DNA of 64,000 nt, taken from Planctomycetota bacterium. GTDB taxonomy: Bacteria > Planctomycetota > SZUA-567 > H5-PLA8. Of this stretch, positions 2,199-10,941 are shown piece by piece (position 1 is the stretch's first letter; each line of letters begins with the position of its first letter). The translations under genes were made by a program, and so were the position numbers. The notes beneath the pieces were generated by a model. It saw nothing but the letters and a program-made list of their open reading frames with translations. It had not been told where the DNA came from and ran no database searches. The stretch spans positions 96,001 through 160,000 of the forward strand of contig JBBRPR010000011.1 of the NCBI GenBank assembly GCA_038227875.1. Direction: 5' to 3'.

Positions 2199-3170
2199 AT
2201 GGCCCACGGACTCAAGCACCGCGAGCGGATTGAACCGGCGCCGCCGAGCAGGCGGGTTCAGACCGAGGCACAGTTCCGAAAATGTGACGCCTGCGGAGAA
2301 ACGCTCTTCGTTAAAGAGCTCCTGAAAGCCCTCGATGTCTGCAAGGTTTGCGGACACCACTTTAAAATCAACTCCACCCGCCGCATCGAAGTGACGCTCG
2401 ATCCCGATAGCTTCAAAGAGATCGACGCCAATCTCGAATCCATCGACCCGCTGGAATTCAAAGGTCGCCGCCCGTACCGCGAACGCTTGAAAGACGCGCA
2501 GCGCAAGACCGGCCTGAAAGACGCCGTCGTCTGCGGCGAAGGTTCGATCGAAGGCATTCCCATTGTCATCGCGGTGATGGACTACTATTTTATCGGCGCG
2601 TCGATGGGCTCGGTGGTCGGCGAGAAAATCACCCGCGCCATTGAACTGGCGACGGAAACGAAGAAGCCGGTAATCCTCGTCTGCTGCTCCGGCGGCGCGC
2701 GCATGGACGAAGGCGTGCTCTCGCTGATGCAGATGGCCAAGACCTCCGCGGCGCTTTACCGGCACCACCAGGCCGGGCTGATCTGCATTGATCTGCTGAC
2801 GGACCCGACTCTTGCTGGCGTCTCGGCCAGCTTCGCGTTTCTCGGCGACCTGATCATTGCCGAACCCCGCGCCATGATCGGCTTCACCGGCGCGCGCGTG
2901 ATCATGGACACGATCAAGAAGCAGCTGCCCGAAGGCTTCCAGGAATCCGAATTCCTGCTCGAGCACGGCCAGATCGATATGGTCGTCGAACGCAAGAACA
3001 TGCGTCAGACGCTCGCCAACATTTTAAAATACGTGGTGACGTCGGAACCCAAACCGGTGGCGGAAGTCGTCACGGAAACGGTTCGCCTGCCGCATGCCAA
3101 CGGCATCGCCAAGCGCGCGCGGCCCGTCAACAAGGCCGCCAAGAAGGCCCAGAAAAAGAAGAAGCGTTAA
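2199..3170 (+). CDS. accD: Acetyl-CoA carboxylase carboxyltransferase beta subunit
   Basis: C4 zinc finger CDAC...CKVC, GASMGSVVGEK, SGGARMDEG, LMQMAKTS. Confidence 0.97.
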   Translation: MAHGLKHRERIEPAPPSRRVQTEAQFRKCDACGETLFVKELLKALDVCKVCGHHFKINSTRRIEVTLDPDSFKEIDANLESIDPLEFKGRRPYRERLKDAQRKTGLKDAVVCGEGSIEGIPIVIAVMDYYFIGASMGSVVGEKITRAIELATETKKPVILVCCSGGARMDEGVLSLMQMAKTSAALYRHHQAGLICIDLLTDPTLAGVSASFAFLGDLIIAEPRAMIGFTGARVIMDTIKKQLPEGFQESEFLLEHGQIDMVVERKNMRQTLANILKYVVTSEPKPVAEVVTETVRLPHANGIAKRARPVNKAAKKAQKKKKR

Positions 3171-4894: not shown

Positions 4895-5536
4895 ATGGCT
4901 AGTCACGAGACCCTCCCCTCTACCACCCGAGAACGATTGCTGGAAGCGGCCGGTGAATCGTTTGCCGAACATGGATTTCAAGGCGCGACGATCAAGGACA
5001 TTTGTCTGCGCGCGGAAGCGAACATCGCGGCGGTCAATTACCACTTCCGCGACAAGAACACGCTTTACCTGGAGGTGCTCCGCTACGCGCAAAAGTACGC
5101 GCGCGAAAAGTACCCCAACCCGATGCCGGACTCGGGGCTCGCGGCCGAAGAGCGGCTGCGGGAGTATGTCGTGAAATTCATGATGCGAATTCTCGACACG
5201 GGACGACCCGCGTGGCATAGCAAATTGATGGCGCGCGAAATGGTCGACCCGACTGCGGCTCTGGACGAAGTCGTGAAGGAGACCATCTCACCGAACTTCT
5301 CCATCTTATTCAATATCGTTCAGGAATTGCTCGGAGAGAAATTTAATACCGAAGAGGTCAGGCTCAGCACCTCCAGTGTGCTCTCCCAGTGCCTCTTCTA
5401 CTTTCATTGCCGCAACGTGATCGAACGCCTGAATCCGGGCTTCGAATATTCCGAACCCAATATCCGCAACATCGCCGCGCACATCGCCGACTTCTCGCTG
5501 GCGGCAATCGCAAAAATCCGCGCGGACCGCGAGTAA
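4895..5536 (+). CDS. TetR-family regulator with CecR/DUF1956-like C-terminal domain
   Basis: TRERLLEAAGESFAEHGF...VNYHFRDK HTH; REMVDPT motif; heads an efflux operon. Confidence 0.9.
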   Translation: MASHETLPSTTRERLLEAAGESFAEHGFQGATIKDICLRAEANIAAVNYHFRDKNTLYLEVLRYAQKYAREKYPNPMPDSGLAAEERLREYVVKFMMRILDTGRPAWHSKLMAREMVDPTAALDEVVKETISPNFSILFNIVQELLGEKFNTEEVRLSTSSVLSQCLFYFHCRNVIERLNPGFEYSEPNIRNIAAHIADFSLAAIAKIRADRE

Positions 5537-5558: not shown

Positions 5559-6956
5559 ATGATTACGGAAGAACTCGAATCCACCGACGCGGCCAGCCCG
5601 CCGAAAAATACGCCCCCCGCTCCGTCCCAGCCCCCAGCCGAGAAGCCGACGACTGCAGTGCCCTCGAGCCGCAGAAAGTACTTGCTTGTGTTCGGCGCGA
5701 TCATCCTGGTCGTCGCTGCCGTTGCCGGTCAGCGACTTCTCGCGTTCTGGTCCCAGTATCAGTCGACCGACGATGCGTTCATCGACGGCCACATCATTCC
5801 CACCAGCGCGCGCGTCGCCGGTCATGTGGCGAAAGTGCATGTCGAAGACAACCAGCTTGTGAAATCTGGTGATCTGCTCGTGGAAATCGATCCGCGTGAC
5901 TACGAGACCAAGCTCGCGCAGGCGAAGGCCGCACTGCAGGTGCTCGAAGCAAAGAAGAAAGCCGCTGAAGATACCGCCGCGATGACCCGCACCACTTCTG
6001 CCGCGGCCGTCGCTCAAGCGCAAGCCAATGTCGCCCTTGCCCGCGCGGCCGTGCAGACTGCCGCGGCCGACATCGAAGCCGCGAAGGGCCGCCAGGCGCG
6101 CGCGGATGCCGAGATCGTTTCCGCGAAGGCCAAGATCGAACAGGCGCAGGCACAGGCGACCGCGACCGATGCCTACGTCACGCGCACCCAGCAGGATGTC
6201 GACCGCTACAAGCTTGCCGTCGAAGCCAGCGCCGGATCGCGCCAGCAGTACGAATATGCCATCGCCGCTCACGACGCGGCCGTCGCGGTGCTCGATGCCG
6301 CGCAAAAGTCGGTTGCATCGGCGCAGGCGAATCTGAATTCCGAGCTCGCGGCGAAGTCCTCCGTTGCCGCCGAGGCCGAACAGTCGGCGTCGCGGAAGGT
6401 CGAAGCAGAGGCGCGCGTCAACGACGCTCTGGGAAAATTGGCCTCGGCACTGTCGGCGCCGCAGCAGATCGCCGTCGCCGACTCGGAAGTCGTCGCCATG
6501 GCCGCGCAAGTCGAGCAGGCCCGTGCCGCGCTGCGGCAGGCGGAGCTGGATCTTTCGTACACTAAAGTCTTCGCCACGGAAGACGGCCGCGTGACGCGCA
6601 AGTCTGTGGAAAACGGCGCGTACATCCAGGCCGGCGAAACACTGCTGGCACTGGTCCCGCAGAATGTCTGGATCACCGCGAATTTTAAAGAGACCCAACT
6701 GACCGACATGAAAGCCGGCAATGCCGTCGACGTCACCATCGACGCGTATCCCGGAAAGTCCTTCAAGGCTCATGTCGAAAGCATCCAGTCGGGAACCGGC
6801 GCGCGCTTCGCGCTCCTTCCTCCGGAGAATGCAACGGGCAACTTCGTAAAGGTCGTCCAGCGTGTGCCGGTCAAGATTACCTTCGACGTTCCCGCCAGCG
6901 CTGACGTCCTTCTGGCGCCAGGCATGTCAGTCGTTCCTGAGGTGAAAGTCAAATGA
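5559..6956 (+). CDS. emrA: EmrA/HlyD-family efflux adaptor
   Basis: N-terminal TM, STDDAF, long coiled coil, ANFKETQ, LLPPENATGNFVKVVQRVPV. Confidence 0.92.
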   Translation: MITEELESTDAASPPKNTPPAPSQPPAEKPTTAVPSSRRKYLLVFGAIILVVAAVAGQRLLAFWSQYQSTDDAFIDGHIIPTSARVAGHVAKVHVEDNQLVKSGDLLVEIDPRDYETKLAQAKAALQVLEAKKKAAEDTAAMTRTTSAAAVAQAQANVALARAAVQTAAADIEAAKGRQARADAEIVSAKAKIEQAQAQATATDAYVTRTQQDVDRYKLAVEASAGSRQQYEYAIAAHDAAVAVLDAAQKSVASAQANLNSELAAKSSVAAEAEQSASRKVEAEARVNDALGKLASALSAPQQIAVADSEVVAMAAQVEQARAALRQAELDLSYTKVFATEDGRVTRKSVENGAYIQAGETLLALVPQNVWITANFKETQLTDMKAGNAVDVTIDAYPGKSFKAHVESIQSGTGARFALLPPENATGNFVKVVQRVPVKITFDVPASADVLLAPGMSVVPEVKVK

Positions 6957-8560
6957 GCGCGGCGGCCGCCACACTCGGCGCGCGGCCAGCCTTCGCCGTC
7001 GACGAATGGAGGCCGGCGCACAATCCGTATCTCGTCGCGCTGACCGTAACGCTGGCGACGTTCATGGAAGTACTCGACACCAGCATCGCCAACGTCGCGC
7101 TGCCGCACATCGCCGGCAATCTCTCCGCGAGTGTCGACGAGAGCACGTGGGTGCTGACCTCGTACCTCGTTTCGAACGCGATCGTCCTGCCCCTGAGCGG
7201 CTGGCTCAGCAGCGTATTCGGGCGCAAGCGCTTCTACATGACCTGCGTCGCGCTGTTCACGATTAGTTCGGCGCTATGTGGATTCGCGCCCAATCTGCGA
7301 ATGCTGATTTTCTTCCGCGTGCTCCAGGGCATCGGCGGCGGCGGACTGCAGCCCAGCGAACAAGCGATACTCTACGATACGTTCCCTGCCAGAAAGCGCG
7401 CCATGGGCATGGCGCTCTACGGCGTCGCGGTCGTTACCGCGCCAATCATCGGGCCGACACTCGGGGGATGGATCACCGACAACTACAGTTGGCGCTGGAT
7501 CTTCTTCATCAACATTCCCGTCGGCATCGTTTCACTGCTGCTGACTTCGCGCATGGTCAGCGATCCCCCGCACCTCGTCCGCCGCGCCTTGAAAGACACG
7601 CGCATCGACTTCATCGGCCTGGGCCTGTTGGCGCTGGGGCTTGGCGCGCTCCAGATCGTGCTCGACAAAGGTCAACGGGAAGACTGGTTCCAATCGTCGC
7701 TGATCGTCCTCCTCACGTTGACGGCGGTGGTGGGTATCGCATCGGCGGTCATCTGGGAATTGAAACAGCGCGAACCGCTCGTTGATTTCCGGCTGCTCAG
7801 CAACCGCAACTTCGCGATCTCGACGGTGATGATGTTCACGCTCGGCTTCGTGCTCTTTGGCAGTACCGTGCTGCTCCCGCTTTTTCTGCAGACGCTGATG
7901 GGATATTCGGCGGTCTTGAGCGGCATGGCGATCTCACCCGGCGGAATTCTGACCATGTTCGCAATGCCGCTGGTCGGATGGATGATCGGCCACTTTGATG
8001 CACGCAAGCTGATCGTCGCCGGCCTGATCATCGTCTCGATCGGATTGTTCCACATGGCATCGTTCAATCTGGAAATCGATTTCAAGACCGCGATGATCGC
8101 CCGGATGATTCAGGCTTTCGGCCTCGCGTTTCTCTTTGTTCCCATCAACACCATGGCCTATTCGACGATCCCCAAGAAGGATGCCAACCAGGCCAGCGGT
8201 CTGATCAACCTCGCGCGCAACCTTGGCGGAAGTTTCGGCATTGCGTTTGTCACCACGCTGCTCTCGCGTCAGGCGCAGGCCCACCAGAATATGCTCGTTG
8301 GACATGTCACGCCTTACGATCCGGCATACAAAAACATGATGAACCACATGACCACCGTGATGCACGTAAACTCCGCCGACCCCGTGAAGGCCACGGCGCA
8401 AGCGCACGGTGTCATCAACGGCATGCTGGAACGCCAGGCCTCGATGCTCTCGTTCGTCGACGCCTTCTGGCTGCTCGGAGCGTTCGCGGTGGTGGTGATC
8501 CCGTTGATTGTGCTGATGAAGCGCCCCACGCCGGGTGCGGAACCCGTCGCGGTGCATTAG
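6953..8560 (+). CDS. emrB: DHA2 (EmrB/QacA) MFS efflux permease
   Basis: FMEVLDTSIANVALP, WVLTSYL, GPTLGGWITD, WRWIFFINIP; ATGA overlap with emrA. Confidence 0.95.
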   Translation: MSAAAATLGARPAFAVDEWRPAHNPYLVALTVTLATFMEVLDTSIANVALPHIAGNLSASVDESTWVLTSYLVSNAIVLPLSGWLSSVFGRKRFYMTCVALFTISSALCGFAPNLRMLIFFRVLQGIGGGGLQPSEQAILYDTFPARKRAMGMALYGVAVVTAPIIGPTLGGWITDNYSWRWIFFINIPVGIVSLLLTSRMVSDPPHLVRRALKDTRIDFIGLGLLALGLGALQIVLDKGQREDWFQSSLIVLLTLTAVVGIASAVIWELKQREPLVDFRLLSNRNFAISTVMMFTLGFVLFGSTVLLPLFLQTLMGYSAVLSGMAISPGGILTMFAMPLVGWMIGHFDARKLIVAGLIIVSIGLFHMASFNLEIDFKTAMIARMIQAFGLAFLFVPINTMAYSTIPKKDANQASGLINLARNLGGSFGIAFVTTLLSRQAQAHQNMLVGHVTPYDPAYKNMMNHMTTVMHVNSADPVKATAQAHGVINGMLERQASMLSFVDAFWLLGAFAVVVIPLIVLMKRPTPGAEPVAVH

Positions 8561-8564
8561 TTCA

Positions 8565-8729
8565 CTATGGTGGTCGACCCTTGTCTTTCGGAAGTTCGAT
8601 CGGCTCCCGTTTCGGCCAAAGACTGTTCTTCGTTCCCGTCCGTGAAATGCGTACCGCGTTGGCATTCAGCTGATTGAGGTTCATTTTTTGATTCACAGTA
8701 TTTCGAAACTGCACTTTAGGTCGGTGCAT
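8565..8729 (-). CDS. Candidate 54-aa basic small protein
   Basis: Hand-translated MHRPKVQFRNTVNQKMNLNQLNANAVRISRTGTKNSLWPKREPIELPKDKGRPP*; AAGAGGA just upstream; fills the gap convergent to emrB. Confidence 0.3.
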   Translation of the reverse strand: MHRPKVQFRNTVNQKMNLNQLNANAVRISRTGTKNSLWPKREPIELPKDKGRPP

Positions 8730-8783
8730 AAGATCCTCTTATTTTTGGGGTTGATGAAAAGATTCCACAGCACAATTCACGGA

Positions 8784-8811
8784 CCGCGGATGCTTCGCAA
8801 GCCATCCGCGG
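8784..8811. other. GC-rich hairpin (possible terminator or stabiliser, no clear U-tract)
   Basis: CCGCGGATG (8784-8792)/CATCCGCGG (8803-8811). Confidence 0.5.
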
Positions 8812-8836
8812 CCCGCGCGAGAGTTACCCGGTTTCG

Positions 8837-8884
8837 CTACCGACCGGCGCCCACTCCCTGGGCGTACATCTGGAAGATAAACAT
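8837..8884 (-). CDS. Candidate 15-aa micropeptide MFIFQMYAQGVGAGR
   Basis: AAAGGAGG (8899-8892), 7 nt, ATG; SD sits in hairpin CCGCCTTT-CGG-AAAGGAGG. Confidence 0.5.
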   Translation of the reverse strand: MFIFQMYAQGVGAGR

Positions 8885-8942
8885 CGTTCTTCCTCCTTTC
8901 CGAAAGGCGGGTGATAAGCCGCTGACCAGCGCAGCCAGAAGC

Positions 8943-9497
8943 TTAGCCTTTCAGCTCCAAATCGATTTCAGGTACGACTTCACTAAACGAGGAATTCGTT
9001 TCAGCTGACTTATTCCAGAGCAGGTAGCGCCGCCGAATTTCCCGCACGTGGTACGCGACGTTGGCTGACGTAAACCCCAGCTCCGCGCCGGTGTCGCGCC
9101 AGGTCAGTCCGTTGAGCAGACAGCGCAAAATCCGCTGCTGCAACGCCGTCAGTTGAGCCGAGAACTCGTCGAGTTCCACGCGGTCGTCCGGCAGAAACGT
9201 GGGCGCTGCGATATCCAGCTCGTCGACACTGGCGCAAGTCCGCAGGCGCGTATACTTCACCGCGTCGAGCATGCGCCAGCGCGCACGCTGAATCAGATAC
9301 GGCGTGAGTTCCCCGCGCGATGGATCGAAATCGTCCACCGCTTCCAGCAGCGCCAGCCACGCCTCCTGCAGCAGGTCGTCGCGATCGAGCCGCGAACAGC
9401 GGGCGTAGTGCTCCGCCATCCGAGCCACGCGCGCGTGCAGGTCGAGCATCAGTTGTTCGGACGAATGTATGGATGAAACGGTGGCATCCGTGAGCAT
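8943..9497 (-). CDS. Sigma-70 family alternative sigma factor (region 2 plus region 4 HTH)
   Basis: DDLLQEAWLALLEAVDDFDPSRG...RARWRMLD (region 2); LTALQQRIL...GLTWRDTGAELG (region 4). Start chosen at the ATG after GGAGAA; the ORF track extends to 9542. Confidence 0.85.
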   Translation of the reverse strand: MLTDATVSSIHSSEQLMLDLHARVARMAEHYARCSRLDRDDLLQEAWLALLEAVDDFDPSRGELTPYLIQRARWRMLDAVKYTRLRTCASVDELDIAAPTFLPDDRVELDEFSAQLTALQQRILRCLLNGLTWRDTGAELGFTSANVAYHVREIRRRYLLWNKSAETNSSFSEVVPEIDLELKG

Positions 9498-9590
9498 CGT
9501 CAGTCGGTTCTCCAAAGTGAAAACGTGAGCGTACCGCCGCACGGTTCACGAAGGAGAATTGAGAATCTAACGGGTCAGGAAAAGAGAAAG

Positions 9591-9647
9591 TTAGATCCGA
9601 ATGCCTTCGGAAAGTGCAGCGATGGGGTTGAACAGTTTATTTTTCAC
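9591..9647 (-). CDS. Candidate 18-aa leader peptide MKNKLFNPIAALSEGIRI
   Basis: AAAGGAGGT (9661-9653) ahead of a GTG start; SD in CCTTTGAAAGG mini-hairpin; TAA at 9593-9591. Confidence 0.5.
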   Translation of the reverse strand: MKNKLFNPIAALSEGIRI

Positions 9648-9735
9648 CGTACACCTCCTTTCAAAGGTCATGAATCGGACTTCAGAGACATATAGCGGCA
9701 GTGGATCGAATTGCTAAAGAAATCTTTTGAGATTA

Positions 9736-10104
9736 TTAGAAACGATAACTGAATATCTTACCTAACAGCATCAGCATTCTCTTTGGAAGTCCGGCTTCGG
9801 CATAGCGTTGCTGCCATACCGCTTCCTCTTGCCTTTTTCGATTAAGATACACAACCCGCTCTGTCTTGATACGTTCTACGACGTATTCTTCGACGCCACT
9901 TAGCCCGCAAATTTTTCCAAGATAGCCAGCGAAATCGCCAACAGTCTTGATCTTCACGTCGGCATCCACAAATCGAATCTCAAATTCTGCTTCGACCGCT
10001 TCCACCAAATGCGATGCAAAATCCATTTCATCGCCGTCGAGATCTTCTGAAAAAGTGGTCTCCATGAAGCCCAGTTCGGGCGCCACATCAAAAATGCGCG
10101 CCAC
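9736..10104 (-). CDS. Acyl-carrier-protein-like protein lacking the phosphopantetheine serine
   Basis: FSEDLDGDEMDF...LVEAVEAEFEIRF...IKTVGD resembles ACP FVEDLGADSLD...LVMALEEEF...ITTV; true start uncertain. Confidence 0.6.
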   Translation of the reverse strand: MARIFDVAPELGFMETTFSEDLDGDEMDFASHLVEAVEAEFEIRFVDADVKIKTVGDFAGYLGKICGLSGVEEYVVERIKTERVVYLNRKRQEEAVWQQRYAEAGLPKRMLMLLGKIFSYRF

Positions 10105-10146
10105 GATCTGAACCGTCCGATCGCACAGTTGTTGATCCGGGGCGCA

Positions 10147-10941
10147 TCACACAATCGACTGCACGCATCCACCTTCCACGCGCACGGCCGCTCCGTTAGT
10201 CGCCGATCCCTGCGGACTGCTTAGAAATACCACCATCGCCGCGACTTCATCCGTCGTAATGAAGCGTTTGAGTAGCGACGTTGGGCGCGCGGTTTTGAAG
10301 AAATTAGCTTCAATTTCCGCCGCGGTTTTTTTCTGATCGCGAGCCAGATCCTTCACGAACGTTTCCACGCCTTCCGACTTCGTCGGCCCGACCAGCACCG
10401 AGTTGACCGTCACATTCGAACCGGCCGTCAGTTGCGCCAGCCCTCGAGCGACGGCCAACTGCGCCGTCTTGGTCATGCCGTAATGGATCATCTCCTGCGG
10501 AATGTTCAGCGCCGATTCGCTGGAAATGAACACCACACGGCCCCAGTTCTGCTTCATCATCTTGGGAAAATAAAAACGCGAGAGCCGCACGCCGCTCATC
10601 ACGTTCACTTCAAAGAAGCGCATCCAGTCTGCATCAGGAATCTCGCCGAACGCTTTCGGTTCGAAGATGCCGAGGTTGTTGATCAGGATGTCGACCTCTG
10701 GAAGTTGCTCCGTGGCCTTTGCGACGCCGTCCTTCGAACCGAGGTCCGCCGCGATGCCGACGACGTCCGCGCCGCGCACATCCAGTTTGATTTTCGACAG
10801 CGCTTCATCCACGCGGTGTTGCGTCCTCCCGTTGACGATGACGCTTGCGCCTTCGCGCGCCAGCCCCGCCGCGATGGCAAAGCCGATTCCTGCAGTCGAC
10901 CCTGAGACCAGTGCACGTTTGCCGTTTAGTTTTAGATCCAT
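10147..10941 (-). CDS. SDR-family oxidoreductase
   Basis: SGSTAGIG, NNLG, YGMTK. Confidence 0.93.
   Translation of the reverse strand: MDLKLNGKRALVSGSTAGIGFAIAAGLAREGASVIVNGRTQHRVDEALSKIKLDVRGADVVGIAADLGSKDGVAKATEQLPEVDILINNLGIFEPKAFGEIPDADWMRFFEVNVMSGVRLSRFYFPKMMKQNWGRVVFISSESALNIPQEMIHYGMTKTAQLAVARGLAQLTAGSNVTVNSVLVGPTKSEGVETFVKDLARDQKKTAAEIEANFFKTARPTSLLKRFITTDEVAAMVVFLSSPQGSATNGAAVRVEGGCVQSIV

Follow-up and report, generated by a model that had tools for sequence, protein, structure and literature searches.

A gene for a sigma factor resembling the extracytoplasmic function (ECF) type, flanked by two very short open reading frames (ORFs), forms a three-part module that is real and is conserved in dozens of genomes. 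We describe it here in a 64,000-nucleotide (nt) stretch of DNA from a Planctomycetota bacterium (the window, meaning the whole stretch analyzed) and in related loci. The module would consist, in order, of a promoter-like motif (P1), a 5' leader with a short ORF (ORF1) behind a maximal Shine-Dalgarno (SD) sequence (SD1), a putative terminator or SD-sequestering hairpin, the sigma factor gene, and a second mini-cistron (ORF2, behind SD2) ending in a strong hairpin. In the window, both SD1 and SD2 contain the 8-mer AAAGGAGG. We favor, with our confidence about evenly divided, the reading that an auto-activated ECF-like sigma factor is gated by a ribosome-dependent leader that replaces an anti-sigma factor, and that a small, constitutively terminated, translated RNA serves as output or feedback.

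Conservation of the sigma factor gene and its two mini-cistrons

Sixty related genomes were searched first, and a profile scan with one genome per species then gave 50 loci; together with the window, these make up the 51 loci counted below. Nearly all of the 50 are from Armatimonadota metagenome-assembled genomes, with the labels Capsulimonas, Chthonomonas, and Abditibacteriaceae among them. Two are distant or unrelated sigma factors (L054 and L056), and two more, whose NCBI titles name Planctomycetota, are same-family relatives found again. In three loci the sequence stops at the sigma factor gene, and the downstream ORF could be scored in 48. Among the 60 related genomes, two of the same family encode homologues of the window's sigma factor (L004 and L005; 55% and 49% identity). 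In both, AAAGGAGGTG is followed after 6 nt by a GTG-started 21-codon ORF on the upstream side and by a GTG- or TTG-started 13-codon ORF on the downstream side, and the downstream ORF is followed by a hairpin and by a GC-rich terminator that includes a T run. The sequence AAAGGAGG(TG) at SD1 is kept in L004, L005, and most other loci, and SD2 is likewise kept in relatives. Overall, a short upstream ORF stands behind a strong SD in about 40 loci (18–38 codons in the relatives), and a downstream ORF of 11–15 codons stands behind a AAAGGAGG-type SD in 29 of the 51 (28 relatives and the window). The latter ORF starts with ATG (22), TTG (5), GTG (1), or CTG (1), and all three stop codons occur. The ORF1 peptides mostly end in (S/L/P)-P-R-x-G plus three to six residues, and the ORF2 peptides follow the consensus M-K-x-x-x-P-A-P-G-A-G-x-R, the N-terminal part being variable in each. 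What the loci keep in common is a maximal SD, the frame of the ORF and the place where it stops with respect to an anti-SD segment (described below), the promoter-like motif, and the terminators or sequestering hairpin. The initial annotation of the window, made from its letters alone, had proposed a compact regulatory module around an orphan sigma factor and had named conserved SDs and short ORFs on both flanks of sigma factor homologues as its test. These were found, and the conserved layout argues that the module is not random.

A scan of metagenomes for sigma factors close to that of the window returned only four distant loci, with 41–45% identity; nearer homologues, with 57–86% identity, were seen as proteins. 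In a quick tree, the Planctomycetota-type sigma factors of the window, L010, and L032 group together (Shimodaira-Hasegawa-like approximate likelihood ratio test, SH-aLRT, 85) inside an unresolved Armatimonadota polytomy; the grouping hints at horizontal transfer and would fit a single move of the whole cassette. Low-depth RNA-library contigs from three studies span from ORF1 to the 5' end of the sigma factor gene and from its 3' end to ORF2, and the contigs that bridge the 3' end of the gene with SD2 and ORF2 fit co-transcription in the window, a DNA origin being possible. Stretches of the region that these contigs leave uncovered carry no information.

The strong SDs are themselves unusual in this genome. 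The 8-mer AAAGGAGG occurs 98 times genome-wide compared with 225 times for its reversed control, i.e. it is approximately 2-fold under-represented, and 44 of the 98 copies have a start codon 4–10 nt downstream; a GGAGG core at positions -18 to -4 precedes 5.3% of 4904 long ORFs (a crude ORF set). The under-representation of the 8-mer and the rarity of the core, at ~5% of long ORFs, indicate that the organism makes little use of strong SDs. The micro-ORFs lie on the minus strand on either side of the sigma factor gene with the positions, starts, and lengths that the initial annotation gave them, at canonical spacings of 6 nt (SD1 to ORF1) and 7 nt (SD2 to ORF2), and its remark that both SDs are stronger than those of most starts agrees with the low frequency of the GGAGG core. 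It had further singled out a shared motif, CCTTT-N1-3-AAAGGAGG. This motif matches twice in the window compared with 0.01 expected, and a search of the 9.3-Mb genome found it to be far from common, returning the same two sites only (reversed control, 0). It is present at both SDs as claimed but is peculiar to this genome; the CCTTT half is absent in the two closest relatives. By our own arithmetic, 98 copies of the 8-mer in 9.3 Mb would produce about half a same-strand pair within 1 kb genome-wide, which is the one point in favor of two strong SD-like 8-mers merely happening to flank a gene. This explanation, however, is refuted by conservation, because the layout recurs in dozens of genomes with sigma factors 41–55% identical to that of the window, and we consider its probability negligible.

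The sigma factor protein matches Pfam Sigma70_r2 (3.6e-13) and the NCBIfam sigma70-ECF superfamily model TIGR02937 (50.7 bits; cut-off, 42.9) and reaches the cut-off of none of the NCBIfam subfamily models. Its matches in region 4 (Sigma70_r4_2, 0.0066; GerE, 0.005) are both under the Pfam cut-off. With 184 residues, the protein has the ECF-type make-up of regions 2 and 4 only within ~170–200 residues, with the region 4 matches being sub-cut-off. No anti-sigma family matched any ORF neighboring the gene in the window, and none matched at E ≤ 1e-5 among 118 flanking ORFs of 35 related loci, which extends to the relatives what the initial annotation had stated for the window.

The leader, the downstream unit, and the promoter-like motif

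The conserved stretch on the 3' side of ORF1, here called the anti-SD segment, is almost complementary to the SD1 region. Duplexes between the two, calculated with RNAduplex, have energies of -15 to -34 kcal/mol and reach z ≤ -2 against shuffled targets in 22 of 36 cases; those of the relatives range from -20 to -34 kcal/mol, with z down to -7.3. The two sides of the helix co-vary between subgroups, and the pairing occurs in the minimum-energy fold of the window leader. In 24 of the 37 loci with P1, ORF1 starts 5–12 nt past the SD, is the sole frame open to the anti-SD segment, and stops 7–14 nt past the helix (10 nt in the window); these 24 ORFs vary in length from 18 to 35 codons. Because the conserved part of ORF1 pairs with the SD1 region, the conserved peptide motif appears to be the translation of the anti-SD segment; the constant frame and stop position nevertheless argue that ORF1 is translated. 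We note that the pairing predicted here is not the one originally proposed: the SDs had been described as embedded in a local CCTTT/AAAGG hairpin, which is not conserved in the two closest relatives and is absent from the predicted minimum-energy folds, where the SDs pair inside their own ORFs instead.

Between ORF1 and the sigma factor gene, hairpins of -20 kcal/mol or stronger with a T-rich tail were found in 17 of 48 leaders, compared with 4 of 48 in each of two controls, and hairpins of -25 kcal/mol or stronger were found in 12 of 48 leaders, compared with 0 and 1 in the controls. A threshold of -12 kcal/mol was discarded, as it did not discriminate (37 of 48 leaders versus 26 and 38 of 48 controls). 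No convincing terminator is present in the window or its two closest relatives; a hairpin that would hide the SD of the sigma factor gene stands in its place. This SD is GGAGAA, weaker than SD1 and SD2, and it is predicted to pair with a TTCTCC-type box 3' of ORF1 with a probability of ~1.0 in the window, L010, and L032. To model a ribosome held at the start, SD1 and the first eight codons were masked in equilibrium folding predictions. Under this mask, the predicted terminator collapses in 8 of 27 leaders, its 5' arm being invaded by the anti-SD region that the mask sets free. In these models, the upstream unit is an attenuator-like leader, in which a short ORF with its own ribosome-binding site precedes a predicted terminator or SD-sequestering hairpin.

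The downstream unit probably represents a small terminated translated RNA. Single-sequence folds of 24 ORF2 units repeat a 5' hairpin just upstream of SD2, a pairing of the SD2 core or its 3' flank with codons 3–9 that leaves the start codon in a loop, and a hairpin that contains the stop codon. The ORF2 of the window folds with codons 3–5 paired to the SD2 core (-22.8 kcal/mol; z, -2.36; 3 of 200 shuffles as good), whereas the z-scores of the units in general are modest (-2.8 to +0.8). The SD2-occluding helix differs in register from one subgroup to another; with the register fixed, 70% of it is paired and 15 double-sided changes are seen, a level that 6–7 of 500 shuffles reach. In 17 of 24 scored loci, including the window, ORF2 is followed by a strong hairpin (-22 to -39 kcal/mol), in most cases with a T-rich tail. 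The terminator after ORF2 is predicted to form with a probability of 0.9–1.0 under every ribosome mask, which suggests a constitutive terminator rather than an attenuator. Two kinds of repeat were seen around this unit in individual loci. First, the interval between the sigma factor stop codon and ORF2 holds runs of CACTCC/CATACCCC-like repeats that form long palindromes in L008, L009, L021, and L039; microRNA-like Rfam matches on these repeats were rejected as spurious products of a permissive search. Second, L017 has four copies of a 15-nt unit between ORF2 and the terminator (positions 3090–3150).

The same structures bear on what the two short ORFs are. It is conceivable, if on balance unlikely, that neither is purposefully translated and that the SD-like and anti-SD-like boxes build structured RNAs, i.e. 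a cis-regulatory 5' untranslated region (UTR) and a separate small RNA, whose partner would be a protein, a ligand, or another RNA; the codons for start and stop would then be by-products. All of the conserved "peptide" residues coincide with pairing segments, the N-terminal residues of both peptides are variable, and GGAG/CTCC-type complements are seen repeatedly, within the 5' hairpin of the ORF2 unit as well as between an internal GGAGC and a GCUCC box. Several observations speak against this reading: a start lies 5–12 nt past a maximal SD in nearly all units, and ATG, GTG, and TTG replace one another without loss; the ORF frame alone stays open across 18–35 variable codons; the stop codons switch type yet hold their position; and, in the alignment, the consensus for codon 2 of ORF2 is lysine. 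Further, in one relative, represented only by a low-depth RNA-library contig, a 1-base deletion and a 1-base insertion 3 bases apart restore the frame, so that ORF2 is open and its stop is unchanged in place. A known structured RNA was not recognized either, as Rfam gave no match at E ≤ 5 for window positions 8400–10200 and no relevant match at E ≤ 1 for 12 related loci.

The initial annotation had suggested that the peptides control, or are produced at the command of, the sigma factor, as leader peptide, effector, anti-sigma factor, or signal. The upstream ORF fits the first of these roles in the sense of a cis-acting translated leader. A direct action of the peptides on the sigma factor, as a miniature anti-sigma factor, an effector, or a signal, would agree with the ORFs always adjoining a sigma factor gene that has no anti-sigma gene; nothing else in the analysis supports it, and we regard it as very improbable. 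The peptides have only 11–35 residues with variable N termini, and the conserved residues (S/L-P-R-x-G in ORF1 and P-A-P-G-A-G in ORF2) coincide with SD-pairing RNA and are accounted for by it.

We also considered whether the strong SDs and short ORFs stabilize the mRNA. The STAB-SD of cryIIIA is a strong-SD mRNA stabilizer. In a Bacillus-like scheme of this kind, ribosomes would block a 5' exonuclease, the 3' hairpin would guard the other end, and nothing would be sensed. The maximal SD near the predicted 5' end and the strong 3' hairpin suit such a scheme, and the B. subtilis hbs mRNA, as described (PMC5737220), offers a precedent, with a maximal GAAAGGAGG-type SD near its 5' end, ribosomes initiating at this SD that block RNase J1, and an interaction between the 5'- and 3'-UTRs. 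Unlike in hbs and cryIIIA, the SD here precedes a conserved ORF, an anti-SD segment, and a terminator. Stabilization leaves unexplained the anti-SD segment inside ORF1 and the fixed distance of 7–14 nt to the stop, the terminator or SD-sequestering hairpin before the sigma factor gene, and the separate copy of the promoter-like motif before the second unit in 16 loci. We judge it to be a rather improbable explanation of the module.

The promoter-like motif, TTTA(G/C)C-N17-(G/C/T)(G/T)ATA, stands upstream of SD1 on the strand of the sigma factor gene in 37 of the 51 loci (P1). A second copy (P2) lies between the sigma factor stop codon and SD2 in 16 loci, overlapping the stop codon in several, and variants were recognized by eye in more. 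No opposite-strand copy occurs in the related loci; the sole minus-strand match among the 50 is in the unrelated L056. In the genome of the window, the motif has 10 matches at N17 compared with 7–11 at other spacings (21 for the reversed control at N16), i.e. a search for a regulon did not find it enriched there, and P1 is the sole copy adjoining the module. In five complete Armatimonadota genomes, TTTAGC-N17-CGATA has 0–6 matches each compared with 1–3 for the control, and module sites account for 7 of 13. The rarity of the motif indicates that it is not a housekeeping promoter. As the sigma factor is the only regulator in the cassette, it is the likely reader of the motif.

Some other sites touch on this motif. 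The only other place in the window's genome where a P1-like motif (TTTAGCA ... TCTATA) is joined to a strong SD ~30 nt further on is on contig C10 (~181069–181340, plus strand), before a 67-codon ORF of no known family. In one complete Armatimonadota genome, the motif is also found 5' of a GNAT acetyltransferase gene (L058, 626–1423, minus strand) and an S-adenosylmethionine (SAM) methyltransferase gene (L069, 717–1469, minus strand), and the GNAT gene carries a 5' hairpin similar to the one in the ORF2 unit. Searched for in the four other complete genomes and in the genome of the window, the GNAT protein had no homologue and the methyltransferase had one distant match (33% identity); we treat these extra sites as a lead. 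Lastly, paired inverted repeats of the GTTTACC...GGTAAAC type lie ~100–150 nt 5' of P1 in Capsulimonadaceae-type loci (L017–L022, L031, and L044–L046) and look like an operator for another regulator.

Proposed mechanism and relation to known systems

The sequences themselves show the features of the module, how far these are conserved, their complementarities, and how rare the motifs are. In the mechanism that we favor, the sigma factor would read P1, and also P2 before the mini-cistron in those relatives that have it, giving positive autoregulation. When SD1 carries no ribosome, it would pair with the anti-SD segment in the 3' end of ORF1, and the downstream terminator would form; in the clade of the window, the hairpin hiding the sigma factor's own SD would form instead. 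If a ribosome were held on SD1 or on the early codons, the anti-SD segment would be free to invade the structure, and the sigma factor gene would be transcribed or translated. In this way, the leader may sense translation status and so take the role of an anti-sigma factor, and the downstream RNA may serve as the sigma factor's output or in feedback. Many ECF-like sigma factors are without a known anti-sigma factor; for one widespread, uncharacterized sigma factor group, the module offers a testable answer to how control may be achieved, namely by a translated leader that uses its own ribosome-binding site as one element of the switch. The two mini-cistrons (11–35 codons), conserved across a poorly studied phylum, are suited to experiments that ask whether RNA, peptide, or both matter, and the whole cassette, at <1.1 kb and apparently self-contained, could easily be moved into a reporter system.

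Several observations weigh against this mechanism. First, several elements of the module are weaker in the window itself than in its Armatimonadota relatives: the SD1:anti-SD duplex is weak (-15.3 kcal/mol; z, -1.1), the inner hairpin is weak as a terminator (-11.7 kcal/mol, within background), and P1 is present but no P2 is recognizable between the sigma factor gene and SD2. Second, the parts are unevenly distributed, as the strict P1 is missing from 14 of the 51 loci and 19 of the 48 loci with sequence 3' of the sigma factor gene have no recognizable ORF2. Third, for at least 10 relatives with very strong terminators, an antiterminator is predicted under no mask. Fourth, two further conserved ORF2 helices (CGCCC/GGGCG and GGAGCA/UGCUCC) covary no better than shuffles, and 29 ORF2 units aligned with MAFFT gave no consensus structure in RNAalifold, the alignment being too gappy. 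Fifth, the conservation of the peptides appears to be fully explained by RNA pairing, and translation is inferred only from the pattern of start codon, frame, and stop; similarly, the sigma factor is assigned as the reader of P1 and P2 only from their position and rarity. Finally, the RNA-library contigs may derive from DNA carry-over.

A wider reading concerns what the leader might sense. The module could be a free-standing sensor of the small ribosomal subunit, in which the two mini-cistrons with maximal SDs, each made of paired SD and anti-SD mimics, report whether mature 30S subunits whose 16S 3' end is free are at hand and so set the level of a sigma factor that has no anti-sigma factor. 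Its outputs would include the 13-codon RNA or peptide and, in some genomes, neighboring 30S-related or modifying enzymes, and the cassette would have moved from Armatimonadota into a Planctomycetota lineage that rarely uses strong SDs. The enzymes in question are RsgA, a RIO-type kinase, GNAT acetyltransferases, and methyltransferases. The genes flanking the module vary between loci; those that recur encode RsgA (4 loci), a RIO-type kinase (2), a GNAT acetyltransferase (3), a SAM methyltransferase (4), and, in convergent orientation, NIF3 (5), and at least part of this recurrence is shared synteny. A co-oriented gene starts 93–137 nt past ORF2 in about a dozen loci. We consider the sensor reading a long shot.

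A search of the full-text literature, of incomplete coverage, found no description of a leader-ORF-gated sigma factor or of this cassette, in line with the original remark that no system of this layout is known. The module is a variant on known attenuator and sigma factor themes and matches no Rfam family. Like other ECF sigma factors, the one described here is a two-domain protein of ~170–200 residues that matches the sigma70-ECF superfamily model only and has a putative autoregulated promoter upstream. Unlike typical members, it has no adjacent anti-sigma gene, it leaves the NCBIfam subfamily cut-offs unreached, and its region 4 is sub-cut-off in Pfam. ECF promoters are usually quoted as being of the AAC/CGT type, from which the promoter-like motif found here differs.

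WhiB7 activates its own promoter. In the whiB7/WblC leader, a short upstream ORF (uORF) and a rho-independent terminator gate a transcription activator by translation of the uORF (PMC10274678), and this makes it the nearest analogue, with a short uORF in a long 5' leader and then a terminator before a transcription regulator. The two differ in that the regulator here is an ECF-like sigma factor rather than a WhiB protein, that the uORF here has a maximal SD pairing with its own 3' end, and that a second mini-cistron lies 3' of the gene; further, the hosts here are Armatimonadota and Planctomycetota instead of actinobacteria, and no link to antibiotics or amino acid starvation is apparent. Like the module, the trp, leu, erm, and cat attenuators have an ORF in the leader and, ahead of the gene, a terminator or a hairpin that sequesters the SD; the alternative pairings that they use are predicted here as well, with the attenuator logic of 1:2 and 3:4 versus 2:3 pairing in 8 of 27 leaders. 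Unlike in the classical attenuators, segment 1 would be the leader's own SD, the leader has no run of regulatory codons, and many relatives are without a predicted antiterminator. Small terminated transcripts and dual-function attenuator RNAs, such as the sigma-28-dependent small RNAs and rnTrpL/peTrpL of Sinorhizobium with its 14-residue leader peptide, offer a parallel for the downstream unit (PMC10578931, PMC7298713, 10.1101/864512): it too would be a small terminated transcript behind the same alternative-sigma-type promoter and may act as RNA and as a peptide of ~13 residues. In contrast to these RNAs, the small gene here is physically attached to the sigma factor gene and, in the window, has no recognizable promoter of its own.

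Coordinates and neighboring genes in the window

The elements of the module are listed in Table 1. The sigma factor gene begins 93 nt past ORF1, and 35 nt separate it from SD2 (43 nt when the CCTTTCGG box is included).

Table 1. Positions in the window of the module elements and of the adjoining 54-codon ORF
Feature	Position	Strand	Remarks
P1 promoter-like motif (TTTAGC, 17 nt, CTATA)	9691..9718	-	29 nt 5' of SD1
SD1 region (CCTTTG + AAAGGAGG)	9654..9667	-	AAAGGAGG itself at 9661..9654
Micro-ORF1, candidate leader peptide MKNKLFNPIAALSEGIRI	9591..9647	-	GTG start; 18 codons + stop
Anti-SD segment in 3' part of ORF1	9604..9622	-	Predicted partner of SD1 region
Long hairpin, ORF1-sigma interval	9500..9572	-	TTCTCC box (9558..9553) pairs with sigma factor SD GGAGAA (9513..9508)
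Inner GC hairpin of the long hairpin	9549..9525	-	T-rich tail at 9524..9514
ECF-like sigma-70 family gene	8943..9497	-	184 aa; best start ATG 9497, stop 8943
SD2 region (CCTTTCGG + AAAGGAGG)	8892..8907	-	AAAGGAGG itself at 8899..8892
Micro-ORF2, MFIFQMYAQGVGAGR	8837..8884	-	ATG start; 15 codons + stop
Hairpin T2	8778..8817	-	18 bp, -32 kcal/mol; 19 nt past ORF2 stop; without clear T run
54-codon ORF with its own SD-like site	8565..8729	-	108 nt past ORF2; possible downstream cargo

The neighbors of the module in the window are an acyl-carrier-protein-like ORF, a short-chain dehydrogenase, the 54-codon ORF (without a match in Pfam or NCBIfam), and a convergent HlyD/MFS pump pair. The acyl-carrier-protein-like ORF (9736–10104, minus strand; 122 codons) lies immediately 5' of P1. 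Its similarity in NCBIfam is weak and sub-cut-off, it has no Pfam match, and by eye the serine of the attachment motif appears to be replaced. On the other side, a gene for an HlyD-type membrane-fusion protein and one for an MFS transporter of the type with 14 transmembrane segments (5559–8560, plus strand) form an EmrAB-like pair that is convergent on the module and ends 5 nt from the 54-codon ORF. Finally, in L010, the closest relative, an nhaA-I riboswitch match (49 bits; gathering score, 37) lies ~2 kb from the module at 4896–4946 on the minus strand.

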